64,000 bases of DNA, taken from NCBI RefSeq assembly GCF_056712565.1, contig NZ_CM160072.1; one strand, 5' to 3'. The position numbers were made by a program, and so were the translations under genes. The first letter of the stretch is position 1. Every line of letters begins with the position of its first letter. Positions 16,560 through 35,644 of this stretch are shown in pieces. Below the pieces are notes generated by a model, which was not told the origin of the DNA, ran no database searches, and worked only from the letters and a program-made list of their open reading frames with translations.

Positions 16560-17497
16560 GCCGGGGCGTCTCCGTTATAGACTTCAGCGAGGATCTCGCG
16601 CGCGCCGTTATTCAGTAGCTCTTCTGCCAGCGAAATCCCCATTTGTTCGGCATCTTGCGGCGCACCGCGGCGTTCACCGCGAATAATCTGCGAACCGTCC
16701 GGCGCGCCGACCAACGCACGCAGCCAGATTTCGCCATCAATAAGCTCGGCGTAGCTACCAATTGGCACCTGACATCCGCCTTCGAGACGGGTATTCATGG
16801 CGCGTTCGGCGGTAACGCGCAGTGCAGTTTCGTGGTGATTCAGCGCGGCGAGCAGCTCGCGAGTGCGTGCATCATCAAGGCGGCATTCAATGCCCACCGC
16901 ACCTTGCCCTACCGCCGGAAGAGAAATCTCGGGTGGCAACGCGGCGCGAATGCGGGACTCCAGACCTAAACGTTTTAGTCCGGCTACGGCAAGAATGATG
17001 GCATCATATTCGCCGTTATCCAGTTTGCTCAGACGAGTGCCGACGTTGCCGCGCAGGGAGCGGATAATCAGATCCGGGCGGCGTTCAGCCAGTTGGCACT
17101 GGCGACGTAAACTGGACGTCCCGACGATACTGCCTGCCGGTAACGCATCCAGACTGTCATAGGTGTTGGATACAAAGGCATCGCGGGGATCTTCGCGCTT
17201 GCAAATGGTGACCAGCCCCAGACCTTGCGGGAATTCAACCGGCACATCTTTCATTGAATGTACGGCGATATCGGCGCGATTTTCGAGGAGCGCGACTTCC
17301 AGCTCTTTCACAAATAAGCCTTTTCCGCCTACTTTCGCCAGCGGCGTATCAAGAATCACATCGCCGCGCGTCACCATCGGTACCAGTTCAACGACCAGGC
17401 CCGGATGGCTCGCCATCAACTTGTCTTTGACATAGTGTGCCTGCCAGAGTGCAAGTGGGCTTTGGCGTGTGGCAATTCTTAAAACATTGTCTAACAT
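16556..17497 (-). CDS. hemC: porphobilinogen deaminase (hydroxymethylbilane synthase)
   Basis: Start placed at [14 protein letters not shown] (313 aa), 7 codons inside the ORF-track start. Confidence 0.85.
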
Positions 17498-17883
17498 GCT
17501 TGTTACCGTCATTATCATCCGTGGTCCATCCTAACATCCTTGCCAGAGCGATGTCAGTGTTGTGGTGAAACGTAGACGCCTGCGCAAACCGTAAAATGAG
17601 GTCTGGCAGTGGATCCTGACAGGCGCTTTGAGCCTTCGTAATAAGGAATTTACAGAGAATAAACGGTGCTACACTTGTATGTAGCGCATCTTTCTTTACG
17701 GTCAATCAGCAAGGTGTTAAATTGATCACGTTTTAGACCATTTTTTCGTCGTGAAACTAAAAAAACCAGGCGCGAAAAGTGGTAACGGTTACCTTTGACA
17801 TACGAAATATCCCGAATGCCGCGTGTTACCGTTGATGTTGGCGGAATCACAGTCATGACGGGTAGCAAATCAGGCGATACGTC

Positions 17884-20430
17884 TTGTACCTCTATATTGA
17901 GACTCTGAAACAGAGACTGGATGCCATAAATCAATTGCGTGTGGATCGCGCGCTTGCTGCTATGGGGCCTGCATTCCAACAGGTCTACAGTCTACTGCCG
18001 ACATTGTTGCACTATCACCATCCGCTAATGCCGGGTTACCTTGATGGTAACGTTCCCAAAGGCATTTGCCTTTACACGCCTGATGAAACTCAACGCCACT
18101 ACCTGAACGAGCTTGAACTGTATCGTGGAATGTCAGTACAGGACCCACCGAAAGGTGAGCTTCCAATTACTGGTGTATACACCATGGGCAGCACCTCGTC
18201 CGTAGGGCAAAGTTGTTCCTCTGACCTGGATATCTGGGTCTGTCATCAATCCTGGCTCGATAGCGAAGAGCGCCAGTTGCTACAACGTAAATGTAGTCTG
18301 CTGGAAAGCTGGGCCGCCTCGCTGGGTGTGGAAGTCAGCTTCTTCCTGATTGATGAAAACCGCTTCCGTCATAATGAAAGCGGCAGCCTGGGGGGCGAAG
18401 ATTGTGGCTCCACCCAGCATATACTGCTGCTTGACGAATTTTATCGTACCGCCGTGCGTCTCGCCGGTAAGCGTATTCTGTGGAATATGGTGCCGTGCGA
18501 CGAAGAAGAGCATTACGACGACTATGTGATGACGCTTTACGCGCAGGGCGTGTTGACGCCAAATGAATGGCTGGATCTTGGTGGCTTAAGCTCGCTTTCT
18601 GCTGAAGAGTACTTTGGTGCCAGCCTTTGGCAGCTCTACAAGAGTATCGATTCCCCATACAAAGCGGTGCTGAAAACACTGCTGCTGGAAGCCTATTCCT
18701 GGGAATACCCGAACCCACGTCTGCTGGCGAAAGATATCAAACAGCGTTTGCACGACGGCGAAATAGTGTCGTTTGGTCTCGACCCGTATTGCATGATGCT
18801 GGAGCGCGTCACTGAATATCTGACGGCGATCGAAGATTTTACTCGTCTGGATTTAGTTCGCCGATGCTTCTATTTAAAAGTTTGCGAAAAACTCAGCCGT
18901 GAACGCGCCTGCGTAGGCTGGCGTCGTGAAGTGTTAAGCCAGTTGGTGAAAGAGTGGGAATGGGACGATGCTCGTCTGGCGATGCTTGATAATCGCGCTA
19001 ACTGGAAGATTGATCAGGTGCGTGAGGCGCACAACGAGTTGCTCGACGCGATGATGCAGAGCTACCGCAATCTGATCCGCTTTGCGCGTCGCAATAACCT
19101 TAGCGTTTCCGCCAGCCCGCAGGATATCGGTGTTCTGACACGTAAACTGTACGCCGCGTTTGAAGCGTTACCGGGTAAAGTGACGCTGGTAAACCCGCAG
19201 ATTTCACCCGATCTCTCGGAACCGAATCTGACCTTTATTTATGTGCCGCCGGGCCGGGCTAACCGTTCAGGTTGGTATCTGTATAACCGCGCGCCAAATA
19301 TTGAGTCGATCATCAGCCATCAGCCGCTGGAATATAACCGTTACCTGAATAAACTGGTGGCGTGGGCATGGTTTAACGGCCTGCTGACCTCGCGCACCCG
19401 CTTGTATATTAAAGGTAACGGCATTGTCGATTTGCCTAAGTTGCAGGAGATGGTCGCCGACGTGTCGCACCATTTCCCGCTGCGCTTACCTGCACCGACA
19501 CCGAAGGCGCTCTACAGCCCGTGTGAGATCCGCCATCTGGCGATTATCGTTAACCTGGAATATGACCCGACAGCTGCGTTCCGCAATCAGGTGGTGCATT
19601 TTGATTTCCGTAAGCTGGATGTCTTCAGCTTTGGCGAGAATCAAAATTGCCTGGTAGGTAGCGTTGACCTGCTGTATCGCAACTCGTGGAACGAAGTGCG
19701 TACGCTGCACTTCAACGGCGAGCAATCGATGATCGAAGCCCTGAAAACTATTCTCGGCAAAATGCATCAGGACGCCGCGCCGCCAGATAGCGTGGAAGTC
19801 TTCTGTTATAGCCAGCATCTGCGCGGCTTAATCCGTACTCGCGTGCAGCAACTGGTTTCTGAGTGTATTGAACTGCGTCTTTCCAGCACCCGCCAGGAAA
19901 CCGGGCGCTTCAAGGCGCTGCGCGTCTCCGGTCAAACCTGGGGCTTGTTCTTCGAACGGCTGAATGTCTCGGTACAGAAACTGGAAAACGCCATCGAGTT
20001 TTATGGCGCTATTTCGCATAACAAACTGCACGGCCTGTCAGTGCAGGTTGAAACCAATCACGTCAAATTACCGGCGGTGGTGGACGGCTTTGCCAGCGAA
20101 GGGATCATCCAGTTTTTCTTCGAAGAAACGCAAGACGAGAATGGCTTTAATATCTACATTCTCGACGAAAGCAACCGGGTTGAGGTGTATCACCACTGCG
20201 AAGGCAGCAAAGAGGAACTGGTGCGTGACGTCAGTCGCTTCTACTCGTCTTCGCACGACCGTTTCACCTACGGCTCAAGCTTCATCAACTTCAACCTGCC
20301 GCAGTTCTATCAGATTGTGAAGGTTGATGGTCGTGAACAGGTGATTCCGTTTCGCACCAAATCTATCGGTAACATGCCACCTGCCAATCAGGAGCATGAC
20401 GCGCCGCTGTTGCAGCAGTATTTTTCGTGA
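17884..20430 (+). CDS. cyaA: adenylate cyclase (class I)
   Basis: 848 aa; TTG initiation codon at 17884; N-terminal [17 protein letters not shown]. Confidence 0.9.
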
Positions 20431-20469
20431 TGAAAGTGCCGGAAAGCGAGGCTTATCCGGCATGCAATC

Positions 20470-20790
20470 TTAGCGGAAACTAACTGTTTCACCCGCCTGC
20501 TGCGTCGCCGCCTGTTCCAGCAAATCCCAGAAGGTTTCACCGCTACGATCGCAAATCCACTCGTCGCCTTTCAGATCAAAATGGTAGCCACCCTGTTTGG
20601 TTGCCAGCCACACCTGGTGCAGTGGTTCCTGGCGGTTGATAATGATTTTGCTGCCGTTCTCAAAGGTAATGGTTAGTACACCGCCGTTGATTTCACAGTC
20701 GATATCGCTGTCGCCATCCCAGTCGTCCAGATGTTCTTCAATGGTCAGCCACAGTTGATCAGCCAGGCGATGAAATTCACTGTCGTTCAT
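20470..20790 (-). CDS. cyaY: frataxin homolog CyaY
   Basis: 106 aa; convergent with cyaA. Confidence 0.9.
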
Positions 20791-20837
20791 TGTTGTATCC
20801 TGTTTTTAAGTGATGGCGGCAGTATAGCGGCATGGGG

Positions 20838-22154
20838 TCAGGGCTTCAAAGTTTGCCCGTCTGCTGCTGCGTTCCGGCATGATTCATCCGTCACCGGAAT
20901 AATAATGTCGCTGTTATGAATTTCACGGACATTCTCTTCTCTGACGCGTGTTTTCGCCGGGCAGTGGGAGGGCGTAATCCTTACCTCTGTATCAGTCCAG
21001 GTATAAACATTGCGATCGTCATAAGCGAAGCGATCGTTTTTAGTTAGCGGACCGTTAACTGGAATAATTTGCACGCTCTTGCGTGACCGTAATTGGCGGA
21101 TAAAGTAAGCATGTTGTTTGCCGCTATTAAATGAGTCATCAATGACCAGGTCTGGCGTATCCAGCGGGATTATCTCAAGCTGGTCTTCACCAAAAGTCGA
21201 TAATTTTGTTACATACAGTCGATCTTTATACTGCGCAATATTGTCAGTAATCAGATGAAATTGTTCAGGTTCAATACCCGGTAGGTCTATCCACTTGCTC
21301 CACTGACGGTCGGGCGTGAGCTGTTTACGCCAGCGAACGCGACTTTCCCCTACTTCAAAAGAGACGTCATCATCTACGGGTATCGCTTTGCCAGATAATT
21401 GACCAAAGGGATAACGATGCAGACCCTTATTGTCGCGAAAAACCAGCAGTGAATGAGGTATCCAGCGAATTATCTCAAATGAGTCTGCATTCGCCGTAAG
21501 GTGAGCGCCATTTAAATAAATATTCTGCCCACTGCGGATAAGCAGATCATTGGAATACAAATTTCTGTTTACACTCATAAGACGTGGATTAATACCCCAC
21601 CATCTTTTTTCTAATACAGTAACATTACTGCTGCTCCCCTGACGTCGACCGGACAAGTAGAGATTTTTACTATCCACCAGCGTGGTAGAGTTACCTTCGA
21701 TAGCTTTTAGTGTCGCCAGATCAACACGTGACGCGCCGCTATTACTTTCGGTACGCTGTCCGTCAAAATAGAGGCTATATTTATCGACCGCGAAGCGGCC
21801 CATAGCCTGAAAGCTGGCAATATCGACAGTGGGTGTTCCCGGTGGATTGCTAACGATTTTGCCACGCCAGAGAATAACGTGGCCGTCTGTCACCCAGTGA
21901 TATTCCTCATTTTCTATGCTTATTTCATCGGAAGGTATATAACCCGTCTTCCCAGAGATATTTTTCACAAGGCGCAAATCGGCCCTGTTCATCTCCGGAA
22001 ATTGGGCAATGATTTTCTTATCCCCCCAATAACCTTTACCGTAAGACATGACACTGTGATCATTGTAATAGTCGAACCCTATGGCCTGTACAGGAGGTGT
22101 CAGAAATGTGTTCCCCAACAGGATGAGTGCAACTGTGATTATTTGACCATTCAT
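20838..22154 (-). CDS. secreted repeat protein with recurring D-K/R-x-(L/V/I)-Y motifs (DKNYY-like), function unknown
   Basis: 438 aa; N-terminal signal peptide; motifs DKYSLYFDG, KNLYLSG, QNIYLNG, DRLYVTK, DRNVYTW; not in K-12 gene order as I recall it. Confidence 0.6.
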   Translation of the reverse strand: MNGQIITVALILLGNTFLTPPVQAIGFDYYNDHSVMSYGKGYWGDKKIIAQFPEMNRADLRLVKNISGKTGYIPSDEISIENEEYHWVTDGHVILWRGKIVSNPPGTPTVDIASFQAMGRFAVDKYSLYFDGQRTESNSGASRVDLATLKAIEGNSTTLVDSKNLYLSGRRQGSSSNVTVLEKRWWGINPRLMSVNRNLYSNDLLIRSGQNIYLNGAHLTANADSFEIIRWIPHSLLVFRDNKGLHRYPFGQLSGKAIPVDDDVSFEVGESRVRWRKQLTPDRQWSKWIDLPGIEPEQFHLITDNIAQYKDRLYVTKLSTFGEDQLEIIPLDTPDLVIDDSFNSGKQHAYFIRQLRSRKSVQIIPVNGPLTKNDRFAYDDRNVYTWTDTEVRITPSHCPAKTRVREENVREIHNSDIIIPVTDESCRNAAADGQTLKP

Positions 22155-29476: not shown

Positions 29477-30379
29477 TTACTTAGCGCACTTCTTCACATC
29501 AATATTCCAGTCAGCACCAGACGCAACCTGATGTTTCTGCGCGAAATTATCCATATTCAGCGCCACGGAAACATTCAATAAGCTGTTCAGATACACCATC
29601 GGCTGGCCTTCCGGCACATCGCCGAAGCTTGCGACATACGGCATTTTCCCTGCGTATTTTTGCTGGGAACCTTCGGAAATGGTCACACACAACGTGTCGT
29701 TGAGTTTGATTCCTGCCTGATTCAGCAACTCGTCGCTGATATTGCTCCAGACGTTGCCGTACTGAATATCGAGAATCGGGATATTGCCCTTCACTTCACC
29801 TTTTGTTGCTTTGGCTTTCTGATAAGAAAGTTCGACAACTTTTGCAGGAAGCTCTGGCCCCACCTGCTCGAACGTGATCGCCCCGGAAGCCAGACGTGCA
29901 CCGGTGTAGGCATACACGTCACGACCGTGGAAGGTATATGACTTTTCGGAACCTTTCAGACGGTTGGTTTTTTCATCGATTTGCCGGACGCTCTCAATAC
30001 CCAGCGATTCCGCCACCAACGTGAGCGTACCGTTATCTGGTGAAACGAAGTACTGACCATTTTTGGTTTTCAGCACTACCGATTTACGGTCTGTACCAAC
30101 ACCTGGATCGACCACGCTAACAAACACCGAACCTTGCGGCCAGTAACTGGCAGTCTGATACAGGCGGTAAGCGCCTTCCCAGATGTTATACGGTGGAATT
30201 TCGTGTGTTAAATCAAATATTTTAAGATTATGGTCAACGCCGAAAGCGACCCCTTTCATCGCCGAGACGGCGCCATCTTTCAGGCTAAAATCCGTTTGTA
30301 AAATCAAAGCGTTATCCGCATAAGCGGATGATGACCCCAGACAGGTTAATAAAAATAATGTTGCGAGCGTTTTTTTCAT
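29477..30379 (-). CDS. signal-peptide-bearing DUF62-like (SAM hydroxide adenosyltransferase family) protein
   Basis: 300 aa; predicted signal peptide MKKTLATLFLLTCLGSSSAYA; motifs TDFSLKDGAVSAMKGV and VVDPGVGTDR resemble the DUF62/fluorinase family; not in K-12 as I recall. Confidence 0.55.
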   Translation of the reverse strand: MKKTLATLFLLTCLGSSSAYADNALILQTDFSLKDGAVSAMKGVAFGVDHNLKIFDLTHEIPPYNIWEGAYRLYQTASYWPQGSVFVSVVDPGVGTDRKSVVLKTKNGQYFVSPDNGTLTLVAESLGIESVRQIDEKTNRLKGSEKSYTFHGRDVYAYTGARLASGAITFEQVGPELPAKVVELSYQKAKATKGEVKGNIPILDIQYGNVWSNISDELLNQAGIKLNDTLCVTISEGSQQKYAGKMPYVASFGDVPEGQPMVYLNSLLNVSVALNMDNFAQKHQVASGADWNIDVKKCAK

Positions 30380-31226: not shown

Positions 31227-31595
31227 TATAGGCCCTGAATGTGGGATTTTTTTATCCTGTTAGCGACCTTGACGAGTACCAAAAAGCGCGAAGTTCAACT
31301 ATTGTTCTGTGGTGTTCTGTTGCGTGTTGACGGCAAAATTTTGCTGGCGTAACATGCGCGCACGATCACTCTAAGAGGACATTCGCCTTGGACACACCCA
31401 GTAGATACTGGCTCATTATCCTGTCATCCAGGATCAACTCCTAAGGCTATCCCTTTTTGCTGATAGCCTTAGCGGTTGTCAGCGACCTCAATTTTTCCCG
31501 TCGCGCTGAGTCAGGCTGTTTAATGGTCTGAAACCCAATTTGTTTCTGTGTGCCCACCGAACTGTCCGATATTTTAAGCATTGGGAGTCCCGGTC

Positions 31596-32546
31596 ATGCT
31601 GAGCGCATTTCAACTGGAAAATAACCGACTGACCCGGCTGGAAGTCGAAGAGTCACAACCCCTTGTAAATGCAGTATGGATTGATCTTGTCGAACCGGAC
31701 GACGACGAGCGACTGCGCGTACAATCTGAACTTGGCCAGAGCCTGGCAACCCGCCCGGAACTGGAAGACATCGAAGCATCGGCACGTTTCTTTGAAGACG
31801 ATGACGGCCTGCATATTCACTCCTTCTTCTTCTTTGAAGATGCGGAAGATCACGCCGGTAACTCCACTGTGGCATTTACCATCCGTGATGGTCGTCTGTT
31901 TACTCTGCGTGAGCGTGAACTGCCCGCTTTTCGTCTGTATCGTATGCGTGCCCGTAGCCAGTCAATGGTGGACGGTAACGCCTACGAGCTGCTGCTGGAT
32001 CTGTTCGAAACCAAAATCGAACAGTTGGCAGATGAAATTGAAAATATCTACAGCGACCTGGAGCAGTTGAGCCGGGTAATTATGGAAGGGCATCAGGGCG
32101 ATGAGTACGACGAGGCGCTCTCCACGCTGGCGGAACTGGAAGATATCGGCTGGAAAGTTCGCCTGTGTCTGATGGATACCCAGCGCGCGCTCAACTTCCT
32201 GGTACGTAAAGCACGCTTACCGGGTGGGCAACTGGAGCAGGCGCGTGAAATCCTGCGAGATATCGAATCCCTGCTGCCGCATAACGAATCCCTGTTCCAG
32301 AAGGTGAACTTCCTGATGCAGGCGGCGATGGGCTTTATCAATATCGAGCAGAACCGCATCATCAAAATCTTCTCGGTGGTATCCGTGGTGTTCCTGCCAC
32401 CGACGCTGGTCGCTTCCAGCTACGGGATGAACTTTGAGTTTATGCCGGAACTGAAGTGGAGCTTCGGCTACCCAGGCGCGATTATCTTTATGATCCTCGC
32501 GGGCCTGGCACCGTATCTGTACTTTAAGCGGAAGAACTGGTTGTAA
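31596..32546 (+). CDS. corA: Mg2+/Co2+ transporter CorA
   Basis: Start at MLSAFQLEN (316 aa); C-terminal YGMNF motif and two TM helices. Confidence 0.9.
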
Positions 32547-32581
32547 TATAAATGCCGGGTAAAGATTGTTCTTTATCCGGC

Positions 32582-33079
32582 TTATTGCTGAAAATTGTCT
32601 TTTTCAAAGTCATGCGGGTTGAACACTCGCTCTATCTTATTTTCCTGGGTTAGTTGATACTCATTGTTATCAGCAATAAAAAAATGAGTATTACGGTAAG
32701 GATATTCATTAATAACCATTAAATAGTTTTTTACGATGCAATTATCATTGCTCTTAATCGTCGGGAAACAGTAGAGATCTTCATACGGCCCTTCGATATA
32801 TTTTTTATAGTCAGTGAAGCCATTACCGATATCAATAACATACCAGGTATGCCAACTATCTTCTGGTAGGGGATTTTGACTTTTAATTTCATCCTGATGC
32901 TTCAGATACCAATTTATTTTATCGCTATCAGTCCATGGCAGATGATCAACGACCAGAAAGACTGAATTGCCAGCATCAGAGTATGTATACAAAATCTGTA
33001 CAGGACGCAATATCCATAAATTATAGATGCAGCATAGAAGAAATAAATATAATATAATTTTCTGGAGTTTTCTTTTCAT
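32582..33079 (-). CDS. small membrane-anchored protein, candidate immunity/partner protein (possibly DUF943-like)
   Basis: 165 aa; N-terminal hydrophobic anchor; very AT-rich codon usage; 4-nt overlap with upstream gene. Confidence 0.5.
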   Translation of the reverse strand: MKRKLQKIILYLFLLCCIYNLWILRPVQILYTYSDAGNSVFLVVDHLPWTDSDKINWYLKHQDEIKSQNPLPEDSWHTWYVIDIGNGFTDYKKYIEGPYEDLYCFPTIKSNDNCIVKNYLMVINEYPYRNTHFFIADNNEYQLTQENKIERVFNPHDFEKDNFQQ

Positions 33080-33924
33080 AGATAATTTTCGATTCTTTCG
33101 ATAGTGTTAAAATTGGTGAAAAAAGGTTTGAAAGCAAAGTCTTTATGCCGTTGTAAAAAGAACCATATGCGAAAAAATCTATACTTGTTGTAAATCTTGT
33201 TTTTTATATCAGTCACATCCAAACCAAAGTGGTCTTGTGCTATGAAATGAATGGTAGCGCTCCAGCCCATAGGATATTTTTGAAAATTTAAAAGAGATAT
33301 TTTTTGAGCTGAGATATCATGAATGCTGATTCCCAGGCCATTAAAATTATCTTTAAAATCATTGAATTTATTTAGTCTTGATGAAAGTAATTCGGTCTTA
33401 ATCTTTTGTAGGAGAAGAGGCCGGTATCCTATCGTAGGTGTTGAAGAAATATCATTTTCGATACATTCTTTGATTACACGTATTGGGCTATTATAATCAT
33501 ATTTGTTTATTCGTTCATGAAAAGATAAGTTCAATTCCTGGCTATGGAAACTGTTGCCATTTTCATATCTAAAATGATCAATCAGATCCTGGATGAGTGT
33601 TTTGTATTGTCCAAAAAAGGAAAACATTTTTGCCAGATCTTTCATTTCTGCAAATAAAATATCAATACATTCACTTTGTGATATTTTTGTTCCAGAAGTT
33701 GGAACACTAAAAGCACCATAAGTAGAATTCGGCCCAGGAAAATGGTATTTAATGAGGCGGTAAGGATCAACTTTTGCAGAGATGTCGCTTAAGCCGAGAG
33801 AGAGAAAATCTTGTTCTTCCATATCCCCATACTGCATATCATCAGCAGAAAAATCATCGAATAAAGTAATAGTTTCGAAAAGTGTACAGGGCATATTAAT
33901 TGATGAGCCTAATATGTTGTTCAT
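33076..33924 (-). CDS. hypothetical protein, candidate toxin/effector-like (possibly DUF3289-like)
   Basis: 282 aa; no signal peptide; AT-rich; translationally coupled to the downstream 165 aa gene; occupies the slot held by yigF/yigG in K-12. Confidence 0.5.
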   Translation of the reverse strand: MNNILGSSINMPCTLFETITLFDDFSADDMQYGDMEEQDFLSLGLSDISAKVDPYRLIKYHFPGPNSTYGAFSVPTSGTKISQSECIDILFAEMKDLAKMFSFFGQYKTLIQDLIDHFRYENGNSFHSQELNLSFHERINKYDYNSPIRVIKECIENDISSTPTIGYRPLLLQKIKTELLSSRLNKFNDFKDNFNGLGISIHDISAQKISLLNFQKYPMGWSATIHFIAQDHFGLDVTDIKNKIYNKYRFFRIWFFLQRHKDFAFKPFFTNFNTIERIENYL

Positions 33925-34234
33925 TTATATTCTCCTTTCTTATAATTAAGGGCAATGTTAATTTGATAAGAAATAATAGGGTAAAAAAATTTTAAAAAAG
34001 AAATGCACTTCACATTTTTTATTACATTCTGAAGATAACTTGGTTAATGATTGGTCTTGCTCATCGCTAATAACATAATGATGAATTTACCAAAAATGAA
34101 ATTTATTAAAGCAAATGAAAATATACAACGACGTCTGGAAATTCTGCCTTTCCTTATGTGAGTCTCCTGTCAGCATGGCAATATGCCCACTCTCATGCAA
34201 GAGTCGGCATATTTTTTCAGAATATATTTATTTT

Positions 34235-35125
34235 TTATTTGGACGTTCTACGCTGCGTATAAATCGCATCCATCACAAAAATTGCCAGCGCCACCCAAAT
34301 AAAGGTGAAAGTTACCATCTTATCGGCACCCGGTTTTTCACCATAAAACGTCACAGCCAGCAGGAACATCAGCGTCGGACCAATGTACTGGAAAAAGCCT
34401 AACGTTGAGAGACGCAGGCGTGTCGCCGCTGCAGTAAAACACAACAGTGGCACGGTGGTGACAATACCGGCGGCGATCAGCAGTAAATTCAGCGACATCG
34501 GGTTTTGCCCCATATGACTGGTTGAGCTGTCGGCAATAGCAAACAGGTAAATCGCCGCCACGGGCAGCAACCACATAGTTTCGATTAACATGCCGGTTTG
34601 CGCTTCAACAGCAATCTTCTTGCGCACCAGGCCGTAGAAAGCAAAACTAAACGCCAGCCCCAGCGCGATGATCGGCAGTGAACCAAAAGTCCACAACTGA
34701 ACCAGCACTCCACATATCGCCAGAATCACCGCCAGCCATTGCATCCGGCGGAATCGCTCGCCGAGGAAAATCATCCCCAGCACAATGTTCACCAGCGGGT
34801 TAATAAAGTAACCAAGGCTCGCTTCCAGCATATGGTGATTGTTCACCGCCCAGATAAACAGTAGCCAGTTGCCGCCAATCAGCACGGCAGAGACTGCCAG
34901 CATAAAAATTTTCTGTGGCGTCTGAATCAGCGTTTTTAAATAGGACCACTGGCGGCAAATGCTCATCAGCACCACCATAAAGAAAAACGACCAGATCACG
35001 CGATGCGTCAGGATCTCATCGGCGGGCACGTAGTAAATCAGTTTGAAGTACGCTGGCGCAATACCCCAAATAAAATAAGCGGCAAGAGCGAGTAATACGC
35101 CCTGCCGCGTTTGTTTTGCATCCAT
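34235..35125 (-). CDS. rarD: EamA-family transporter RarD
   Basis: 296 aa, 10-TM protein; synteny. Confidence 0.85.
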   Translation of the reverse strand: MDAKQTRQGVLLALAAYFIWGIAPAYFKLIYYVPADEILTHRVIWSFFFMVVLMSICRQWSYLKTLIQTPQKIFMLAVSAVLIGGNWLLFIWAVNNHHMLEASLGYFINPLVNIVLGMIFLGERFRRMQWLAVILAICGVLVQLWTFGSLPIIALGLAFSFAFYGLVRKKIAVEAQTGMLIETMWLLPVAAIYLFAIADSSTSHMGQNPMSLNLLLIAAGIVTTVPLLCFTAAATRLRLSTLGFFQYIGPTLMFLLAVTFYGEKPGADKMVTFTFIWVALAIFVMDAIYTQRRTSK

Positions 35126-35176
35126 CGGGAATACTCATTTTTAATTGGTAACAGCAGTTTACCTGCTTTTATGTCT

Positions 35177-35644
35177 TCAACCTACCATATAGGTGGCGGT
35201 GGCACTGGCAATATAAAGCTGTTCTTCATTGTGTAATTCAACGCGGGCGACGGCGACTTTATTGCCTGCACGTAACAGGCTACTGGTAGCAGTAAAACGC
35301 TCGCCTCTGCCTGGGCGCAGATAATCGACGCGAAGATCAATGGTCCCCATCCGCGATAGCCGCTGGCGTAGTTCATCTTCACTGATGGTTTCGTGGCGGG
35401 TTAAGGTACTTCCCACGCACACCAGACCTGCGGCGACATCCAGCGCCGACGCAATGACCCCGCCGTGTAAAATGCTTTGCGCCCAGTTGCCCACCATCAT
35501 CGGCTGATTTTTAAAGGCCAGCTGTGCGAACTCTTTTTCGTAACGCTCCAGTTCCATCCCCAATGCGCGGTTAAATGGTATGTGATAAACAAACATCTCA
35601 CCCACTAATTTGAGGGCTTGTTCAGCGGTCAGTACGGCAGACAT
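35177..35644 (-). CDS. yigI: hotdog-fold thioesterase YigI
   Basis: Start at MSAVLTAEQ (155 aa); synteny. Confidence 0.8.

Follow-up and report, generated by a model that had tools for sequence, protein, structure and literature searches.

What are the two AT-rich genes that lie between corA and rarD, how did they come to be there, and what might they do for the cell? The locus is part of a 64,000-nucleotide stretch of DNA (the window; RefSeq assembly GCF_056712565.1, contig NZ_CM160072.1), and the region matches, at 100% identity, that of the chromosome of the Escherichia coli type strain DSM 30083 = ATCC 11775 (NZ_CP033092.2). An initial annotation, made from the letters of the window, suspected that the two genes form a DUF3289/DUF943 toxin-immunity pair, and this suspicion is borne out by hidden Markov model matches, the RefSeq annotation, the literature and fold matches to PDB entry 9JDI. 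On sequence comparison, the homology of this DUF3289/DUF943 pair to proven effector-immunity pairs of type VI secretion systems (T6SSs) is solid. The two genes are most probably (we would put it at roughly 80%) an orphan T6SS effector-immunity pair, that is, one that is unlinked to the T6SS gene cluster. Two points go beyond the initial annotation, namely the T6SS as the putative delivery system and a two-step displacement of yigF and yigG.

Both products belong to named families. The 282-amino-acid (aa) protein matches Pfam DUF3289 (PF11692) over residues 10-278 (E 3.2e-82; model positions 2-270 of 272) and the full length of NCBIfam TIGR03034, the 'YPO3983 family' (394.3 bits against a cut-off of 156.45; model positions 1-274 of 274), and it matches no housekeeping enzyme. 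The 165-aa protein matches Pfam DUF943 (PF06092; E 3.5e-27, model positions 2-150 of 151), and no NCBIfam model matches it. Given Pfam E-values of 3e-82 and 3.5e-27, the pair does not consist of chance open reading frames (ORFs), and the RefSeq annotation agrees, since DUF3289 and DUF943 are already named in the ATCC 11775 genome. Neither protein matches a PADLOC defence model, so the pair is not a known anti-phage system. As the initial annotation had held, the larger protein appears to be soluble: it contains neither a signal peptide nor a hydrophobic segment, its highest 19-residue Kyte-Doolittle mean being 1.17.

The DUF3289 family comprises 440 clusters at 50% identity, whose members are either stand-alone proteins of ~280 aa or longer proteins with an extension N-terminal to the domain; one of the longer proteins has a faint precomputed PAAR_motif match in this position. 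In an alignment of 50 homologues, reaching down to 25% identity, the most conserved stretch is QDHFGLDVTD, within which H232, F233, G234 and D239 do not vary and conservation reaches 90% or more at Q230, D231, L235 and D236. This motif belongs to a strongly conserved C-terminal core (H202-D203 ... Q230-D-H-F-G-L-D236-x-x-D239 ... W254..L257-Q258 ... P267), and all of its residues (H202, D203, Q230, D231, H232, F233, G234, L235, D236, D239, W254, L257, Q258 and P267) are present in the window protein. An N-terminal acidic motif of D24, D29, G33 and D34 is also conserved among the 50 homologues and kept here. From this pattern, QDHFGLDVTD is a candidate active site, and a metal-dependent one could reasonably be formed by the acidic/histidine cluster QDHFGLDxxD together with H202-D203.

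The features of the 165-aa protein point to the compartment in which the toxin would act. Four lysine or arginine residues within positions 1-7 precede a hydropathy maximum of 1.87 at residue 8, in keeping with the N-terminal membrane anchor that had been claimed for it, and by the positive-inside rule the N-terminus is predicted to be inside and the C-terminus outside. Residues C104 and C114 are near-invariant in an alignment of 23 DUF943 sequences, some of them taken from genes adjoining DUF3289 homologues, and both are found in the window protein; such a cysteine pair fits an oxidising, periplasmic location of the DUF943 domain. In the AlphaFold2 model (mean predicted local distance difference test score, pLDDT, 89.7), residues 2-23 form a helix at the N-terminus, and a beta-rich domain follows. 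Because the immunity domain is predicted to be periplasmic, the toxin should act in the periplasm; on the models, this assignment of the site of action and of the face of the immunity domain is solid.

The AlphaFold2 model of the effector, built on the 50-member alignment, has a pLDDT of 90.5. The best structural matches of the two models are the effector and the immunity chain of 9JDI, a solved T6SS complex from Bacteroides fragilis whose depositors describe the DUF3289 chain as the effector and the partner chain as the immunity protein. The effector also reaches the B. fragilis PDB entries by sequence (E 2e-5 with the single sequence and 1e-25 with a profile); a PDB sequence search with DUF943 gave noise, the best E being 0.049. 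As judged from the models, both E. coli proteins are homologous to the two halves of one solved T6SS effector-immunity complex. Below 9JDI, the next recognisable folds in both structure searches with the effector are colicin M-like proteins. The DUF3289 profile, run against PDB sequences, reached the B. fragilis entries alone and not colicin M, and Cmi is not among the fold matches of the DUF943 model. These matches thus only faintly suggest a colicin M-like attack on lipid II.

The colicin M-like folds could also indicate a colicin M-type bacteriocin or another contact-independent toxin, released without a T6SS by lysis, in vesicles or by some other means, with DUF943 in the role of Cmi. Cmi consists of a periplasmic domain that is anchored in the membrane at its N-terminus, DUF943 is predicted to have this topology too, and some carriers of the pair have no detectable T6SS. 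On the other hand, the protein has no receptor-binding or translocation domain and is in its entirety a DUF3289 domain, which in other species is fused to PAAR; ORFs and annotation reveal no lysis gene, SOS box or plasmid context at the locus; Cmi is absent from the DUF943 fold matches; and family members have been found by experiment to be T6SS-dependent (PMC12135965). A bacteriocin is therefore a very improbable reading of the pair.

For a T6SS effector-immunity pair, the following mechanism may be proposed. The 282-aa DUF3289 protein would be made in the cytoplasm without an export signal and would hence be harmless to its producer. It would be loaded onto the T6SS encoded at metV and fired into the periplasm of neighbouring Gram-negative cells, where it would damage cell-wall synthesis, possibly by the colicin M-like attack on the lipid II precursor that has been proposed in print, and the target cells would round up and lyse. 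The co-translated DUF943 protein would be anchored in the inner membrane, its domain reaching into the periplasm, where it would bind and block toxin arriving from sister cells. Secretion of the E. coli effector by the T6SS at metV, the biochemical target of the effector and the loading of a protein that consists of the toxin domain only are steps that we infer.

Periplasmic toxicity, rescue by DUF943 and T6SS-dependent delivery are taken from papers on relatives; T6SS-dependent secretion, periplasmic toxicity and neutralisation by the immunity protein have been shown solely for relatives in Yersinia, Aeromonas and Bacteroides, and no paper that deals with the corA-rarD pair of E. coli turned up in the literature searches. 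Toxicity in the periplasm of E. coli, with rounding of the cells, has been shown for a PAAR-DUF3289 protein encoded in a T6SS operon of Yersinia pseudotuberculosis, and the cells are rescued by its DUF943 neighbour (Geller et al. 2024, PMC11148199). The same authors proposed a colicin M-like action on lipid II from a Foldseek match to PaeM (4G76) and stated that secretion and mechanism still require proof (PMC11148199). In Aeromonas jandaei DSM 7311, an orphan DUF3289 protein (WP_042032936.1) is part of the T6SS-dependent secretome, loss of its gene together with the downstream gene leads to sensitivity to T6SS attack, and competition assays identify the two as a true effector-immunity pair (the WHIX paper, PMC12135965). 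Clusters of DUF3289 and DUF943 genes co-occur with a T6SS of Klebsiella (PMC12469244), and in the literature DUF3289 is described as a C-terminal toxin on PAAR and PIX effectors and also as adjoining VgrG.

The host genome offers a candidate machine. When the module was joined to CFT073 tssC as one query, ATCC 11775 was matched in two places, against one for the module region alone, and the annotation was then read. At the metV tRNA genes (NZ_CP033092.2 positions 1,028,535-1,058,279) it lists a complete T6SS cluster, free of pseudogene flags, with tssA, B, C, E, F, G, H, J, K and L, ImcF/TssM, Hcp, a DUF2345 VgrG and two PAAR proteins. Within this cluster (L016:9034-11940, 16912-21603), a gene for a 525-aa PAAR-domain protein is followed by two small hypothetical genes; the cluster also includes a member of the esterase/lipase family, close to a Tli4-family immunity gene, besides several unnamed ORFs. 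Probably, these represent additional effector-immunity pairs, and NCBIfam supplied no names for the unannotated genes inside the ATCC 11775 cluster. The tssF gene of the homologous cluster of CFT073 (L005:39165-40923) is annotated as frameshifted, unlike the intact gene of ATCC 11775, so carriers of the same module may differ in T6SS competence.

The pair is widespread. At least 80% of window positions 32400-34400 is contained in 2,625 of 5,426 complete E. coli genomes (~48%), and the carriers include the type strain, extraintestinal pathogenic E. coli of the ST95 type (S88, APEC O1), O157:H7 and O104:H4. A homologous pair occupies the same rarD/corA site in Salmonella enterica (effector 63% identical in amino acids, module GC 0.40), where the locus holds no trace of yigF or yigG and DNA homology is continuous through the module; the subspecies houtenae, arizonae, salamae and diarizonae were assigned from source names. 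In other genera, a DUF3289 gene is followed by one to three DUF943 genes in 8 of 8 loci, among them that of the protein with the faint PAAR_motif match, and the pair stands between unrelated housekeeping genes and is sometimes duplicated in tandem; no T6SS genes adjoin it in the eight loci examined. Some of these regions (GCA_053570825.1, L013:8001-15175; L008:6499-9319; L012) contain two DUF3289 loci close by or tandem pairs, with two or three DUF943 genes per effector, and the DUF943 arrays look like expansions of orphan immunity genes.

The co-occurrence of the module with T6SS genes was estimated from a population query made of the module, 1 kb of T6SS-1 tssC and 1 kb of T6SS-2 tssC, of which 60 evenly spaced ranks were sampled. 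Forty of the 60 rows were module carriers, 32 of them with a second matching place, which was read as tssC and could occasionally be a paralogue of the module, and 8 with the module alone; 19 rows held tssC without the module, and 1,494 genomes matched no part of the query. By this estimate, a T6SS-1- or T6SS-2-type tssC is found in ~80% of carriers vs ~46% of non-carriers, in a small sample limited by megablast sensitivity, covering T6SS-1 and T6SS-2 and not T6SS-3, and uncontrolled for phylogeny.

Comparison with strain 201609 reveals a mosaic module. Its immunity gene is 98.6% identical to that of 201609 in nucleotides, and the effector is 84% identical in amino acids overall. The first ~240 effector codons (33200-33924) and the upstream region (to 34090) are ~85% identical in nucleotides, and the last ~40-90 effector codons and the immunity gene (32550-33200) are ~99-100% identical; in strain 121, it is the immunity C-terminus that has diverged instead. 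By these alignments E. coli holds two diverged effector alleles, and the sharp shift in divergence inside the effector gene looks like a recombination breakpoint. Such recombination-driven diversification is typical of toxin-immunity loci, and the N-terminal two-thirds of the effector may be suited to another T6SS carrier or subject to diversifying selection. Strain EC21 (NZ_CP060899.1) has an IS1 element within the matched corA-rarD interval, and short homologues of ~245-253 aa were also found (P0035-P0038), which suggests that the toxin gene decays occasionally.

The pair may be kept mainly for defence, or may be a decaying relic, the immunity protein guarding against foreign DUF3289 toxins with an effector that is silent or undeliverable in many hosts and AT-rich DNA that is likely repressed by H-NS. 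This would agree with the better conservation of the immunity protein between E. coli lineages, compared with most of the effector (96% vs 84% amino-acid identity), with the extra immunity-only copies in other genera, with the IS1 insertion and truncated effector genes of some strains, and with the sampled carriers (8/40) in which no T6SS-1/-2 tssC was detected. In the region 5' of the effector, moreover, no convincing or well-placed sigma-70 promoter was found, the number of sites being no higher than in shuffled sequence. The effector ORF is nevertheless intact, is preceded by a strong Shine-Dalgarno sequence and retains every family-invariant residue; the host has a complete T6SS; and the ~99-100% identity of the effector's C-terminal core between lineages suggests purifying selection on the toxin too. 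We consider a mainly protective or vestigial pair unlikely.

Several further points weigh against the assignment to the T6SS. The effector consists of the DUF3289 domain only, domain search and alignment having revealed no PAAR, MIX, PIX or WHIX module in it, and at 33 kDa it is large for cargo of the Hcp lumen. About a fifth of the sampled carriers (8/40, ~20%) are without a T6SS-1/-2 tssC detectable by megablast. The T6SS cluster lies ~1.16 Mb from the module, whose neighbours are corA and rarD and no T6SS gene. Because of this distance the pair is an orphan; orphan effectors are an accepted class, so the missing linkage is compatible with membership (PMC12135965). In the literature covered here, no biochemical demonstration of lipid II cleavage by DUF3289 was found, and the function assigned to the E. 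coli pair derives from sequence, models and the experiments on its relatives. Since the corA-rarD site is shared by about half of E. coli and by Salmonella, and about one in five carriers has no detectable T6SS-1/-2, the pair could work independently of a T6SS at least in some hosts, or the effector could be loaded by a novel route for 33-kDa proteins made of a toxin domain only. In the independent case, it may be a toxin/immunity module that maintains itself, or a community 'password' by which retention of immunity is favoured. We hold this to be a minor possibility, about as doubtful as the protective or vestigial one.

Over-expressed membrane-anchored proteins are often non-specifically toxic, and this counts against an assignment with the roles reversed, in which the toxin would be DUF943, acting on the membrane, and DUF3289 would serve to load it as a T6SS adaptor or chaperone. 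The reversal goes back to a 2021 preprint from the Geller group, itself a further point against the roles assigned here, in which over-expression of a DUF943 protein from Aeromonas was toxic to E. coli and that of the neighbouring DUF3289 protein, taken to be an adaptor, was not (10.1101/2021.10.07.463556). It is superseded by the later work of the same laboratory, in which periplasmic DUF3289 is toxic and DUF943 rescues (PMC11148199), and the Aeromonas DUF3289 protein is itself secreted and acts as an effector (PMC12135965). The depositors of 9JDI likewise call the DUF3289 chain the effector, and both of our models match those chains; one to three DUF943 copies per DUF3289 gene is the pattern of an immunity gene. 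The reversed roles are largely refuted, and they are the least probable of the readings considered.

The features of the probable orphan T6SS effector-immunity pair and of its surroundings are collected in Table 1. The coordinates and lengths of the two coupled minus-strand genes given by the initial annotation proved exact. Their 4-bp overlap is consistent with translational coupling of effector and immunity genes. The GC contents of the two genes (0.329 for the effector gene and 0.335 for the immunity gene) are lower than those of corA (0.531), rarD (0.506) and the window as a whole (0.510), as had been noticed before. The hairpin between the convergent corA and immunity genes is a candidate bidirectional terminator; homology to K-12 stops at the corA stop codon (32546), so the hairpin is assigned to the inserted module and not to K-12-type DNA.

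Table 1. Coordinates of the effector-immunity module and of the adjoining features in the window.
Feature	Position	Strand	Description	Evidence
Effector gene	33076..33924	-	282 aa, ATG start, 33 kDa, soluble, DUF3289	
Immunity gene	32582..33079	-	165 aa, ATG start, DUF943, N-terminal inner-membrane anchor	
Overlap of effector stop (TGA) and immunity start	33076..33079	-	ATGA, 4 bp, context ctATGAaa	Read from sequence
Shine-Dalgarno sequence of the effector gene	33932..33937	-	AAGGAG, 7 nt 5' of the effector ATG	Read from sequence
Most conserved family motif	33208..33237	-	QDHFGLDVTD, effector codons 230-239	Alignment of 50 homologues
Transmembrane anchor	33008..33058	-	IILYLFLLCCIYNLWIL, immunity codons 8-24, after MKRKLQK	Hydropathy
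Hairpin	32554..32581	.	12-bp stem, between convergent corA and immunity genes	Terminator-like scan
Whole AT-rich module	32547..34090	-	~1.54 kb, GC ~0.32, absent from K-12	BLAST breakpoints against K-12, 201609 and 121
yigG 5' remnant	34091..~34178	-	~88 bp, about 30 codons from the start of the gene	K-12 alignment of 34091-35300, starting 88 nt inside yigG
corA	31596..32546	+	Flanking core gene	Annotation
rarD	34235..35125	-	Flanking core gene, upstream on the strand of the pair	ORF list and annotation

Two neighbouring genes may be recorded here. The 18-codon ysgD (31388-31444, plus strand; YsgD/CorL family, annotated by RefSeq) lies 5' of corA, in the region of the corA leader peptide, and is unrelated to the pair. 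Between uvrD and yigE, a minus-strand gene (29477-30379, GC ~0.50) encodes a 300-aa member of the S-adenosyl-L-methionine hydroxide adenosyltransferase family with a signal-like N-terminus.

By comparing four arrangements of the locus, those of K-12, strain 201609, strain 121 and the window, the history of the insertion may be reconstructed. K-12 has corA-yigF-yigG-rarD, with yigF and yigG in this interval as the initial annotation had stated. Strain 201609 has corA, the immunity gene, the effector gene, a 147-bp direct duplicate of the corA 3' end, yigF, yigG and rarD, and strain 121 is similar except for other DNA in place of yigF and yigG. The duplicate lies beyond the upstream region of the effector in both strains (L002:3212-3358 in 201609 and L003:3209-3355 in 121); RefSeq calls it a partial corA pseudogene, and the distal copy is changed at its 5' end. 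In the window, the module extends to 34090 and there meets yigG directly, 88 nt inside the gene, and the translation of the remnant matches YigG ...YIFSFILINFIF. The corA 3' end and the spacer between rarD and the effector gene show no self-similarity in the window, so the 147-bp duplicate has been deleted here; no convincing microhomology was found at the deletion junction.

According to these alignments, insertion of the module took place at the stop codon of corA and was accompanied by a duplication of the gene's final 147 bp, and the duplicate marks its entry into the locus. A later deletion of roughly 0.9 kb in the lineage of the window then took the corA duplicate, yigF and most of yigG. 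The earlier statement that the module replaces yigF and yigG accordingly holds for the end state and not for the event, which was insertion followed by deletion, and other strains hold both. Orthology of the pair to YigF (DUF2628) and YigG was considered and rejected; the two proteins belong to different Pfam families from these, and the only trace of yigG is the ~88-bp remnant upstream.

The role of DUF3289 and DUF943 was published in 2024-2025, the crystal structure of a relative has been solved and the RefSeq names are in place, so no new category of system is proposed. What is added here is the match of both chains to 9JDI, the distant intact T6SS, the history of corA duplication and deletion, the synteny with Salmonella, the allelic mosaic and the minority of carriers without a detectable T6SS. 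If the proposed function is correct, an uncharacterised T6SS toxin that targets the cell wall is present, together with its antidote, at a fixed site of the core genome in the E. coli type strain and in about half of the E. coli sequenced. The pair could shape competition between strains in the gut, and it may provide a simple E. coli model for the loading of effectors that have no delivery domain and for the cleavage target of DUF3289.

Several known systems are close to the E. coli pair. The colicin M family (ColM, PaeM and syringacin M) with Cmi is the proposed mechanistic analogue, in which a periplasmic enzyme destroys the lipid II precursor and is countered by a membrane-anchored periplasmic immunity protein. 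Colicin M-like lipid II phosphodiesterases are characterised by the catalytic signature DxYD(x5)HR. The orphan DUF3289 protein of A. jandaei (WP_042032936.1) is likewise encoded away from a T6SS cluster, is T6SS-secreted and has its immunity gene just downstream; it differs in its immunity protein, which has 95 aa, with a signal peptide as well as three transmembrane helices, and is not DUF943 (PMC12135965). T6EC1/T6IC1 of Y. pseudotuberculosis IP32881 shares both Pfam families, the gene order and an immunity gene directly downstream, and T6IC1 is predicted to have the topology of the E. coli DUF943 protein, with a short cytoplasmic N-terminus, one transmembrane helix and a periplasmic domain. 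The Yersinia toxin, in contrast, is part of a fusion with a PAAR spike tip, and its gene belongs to a T6SS operon, whereas the E. coli toxin domain stands alone between core genes. The closest structural relative is the solved BtpeA-BtpiA complex of B. fragilis (PDB 9JDI, 9JG8/9JG9; Li et al. 2025, Cell Host Microbe 33:1901).

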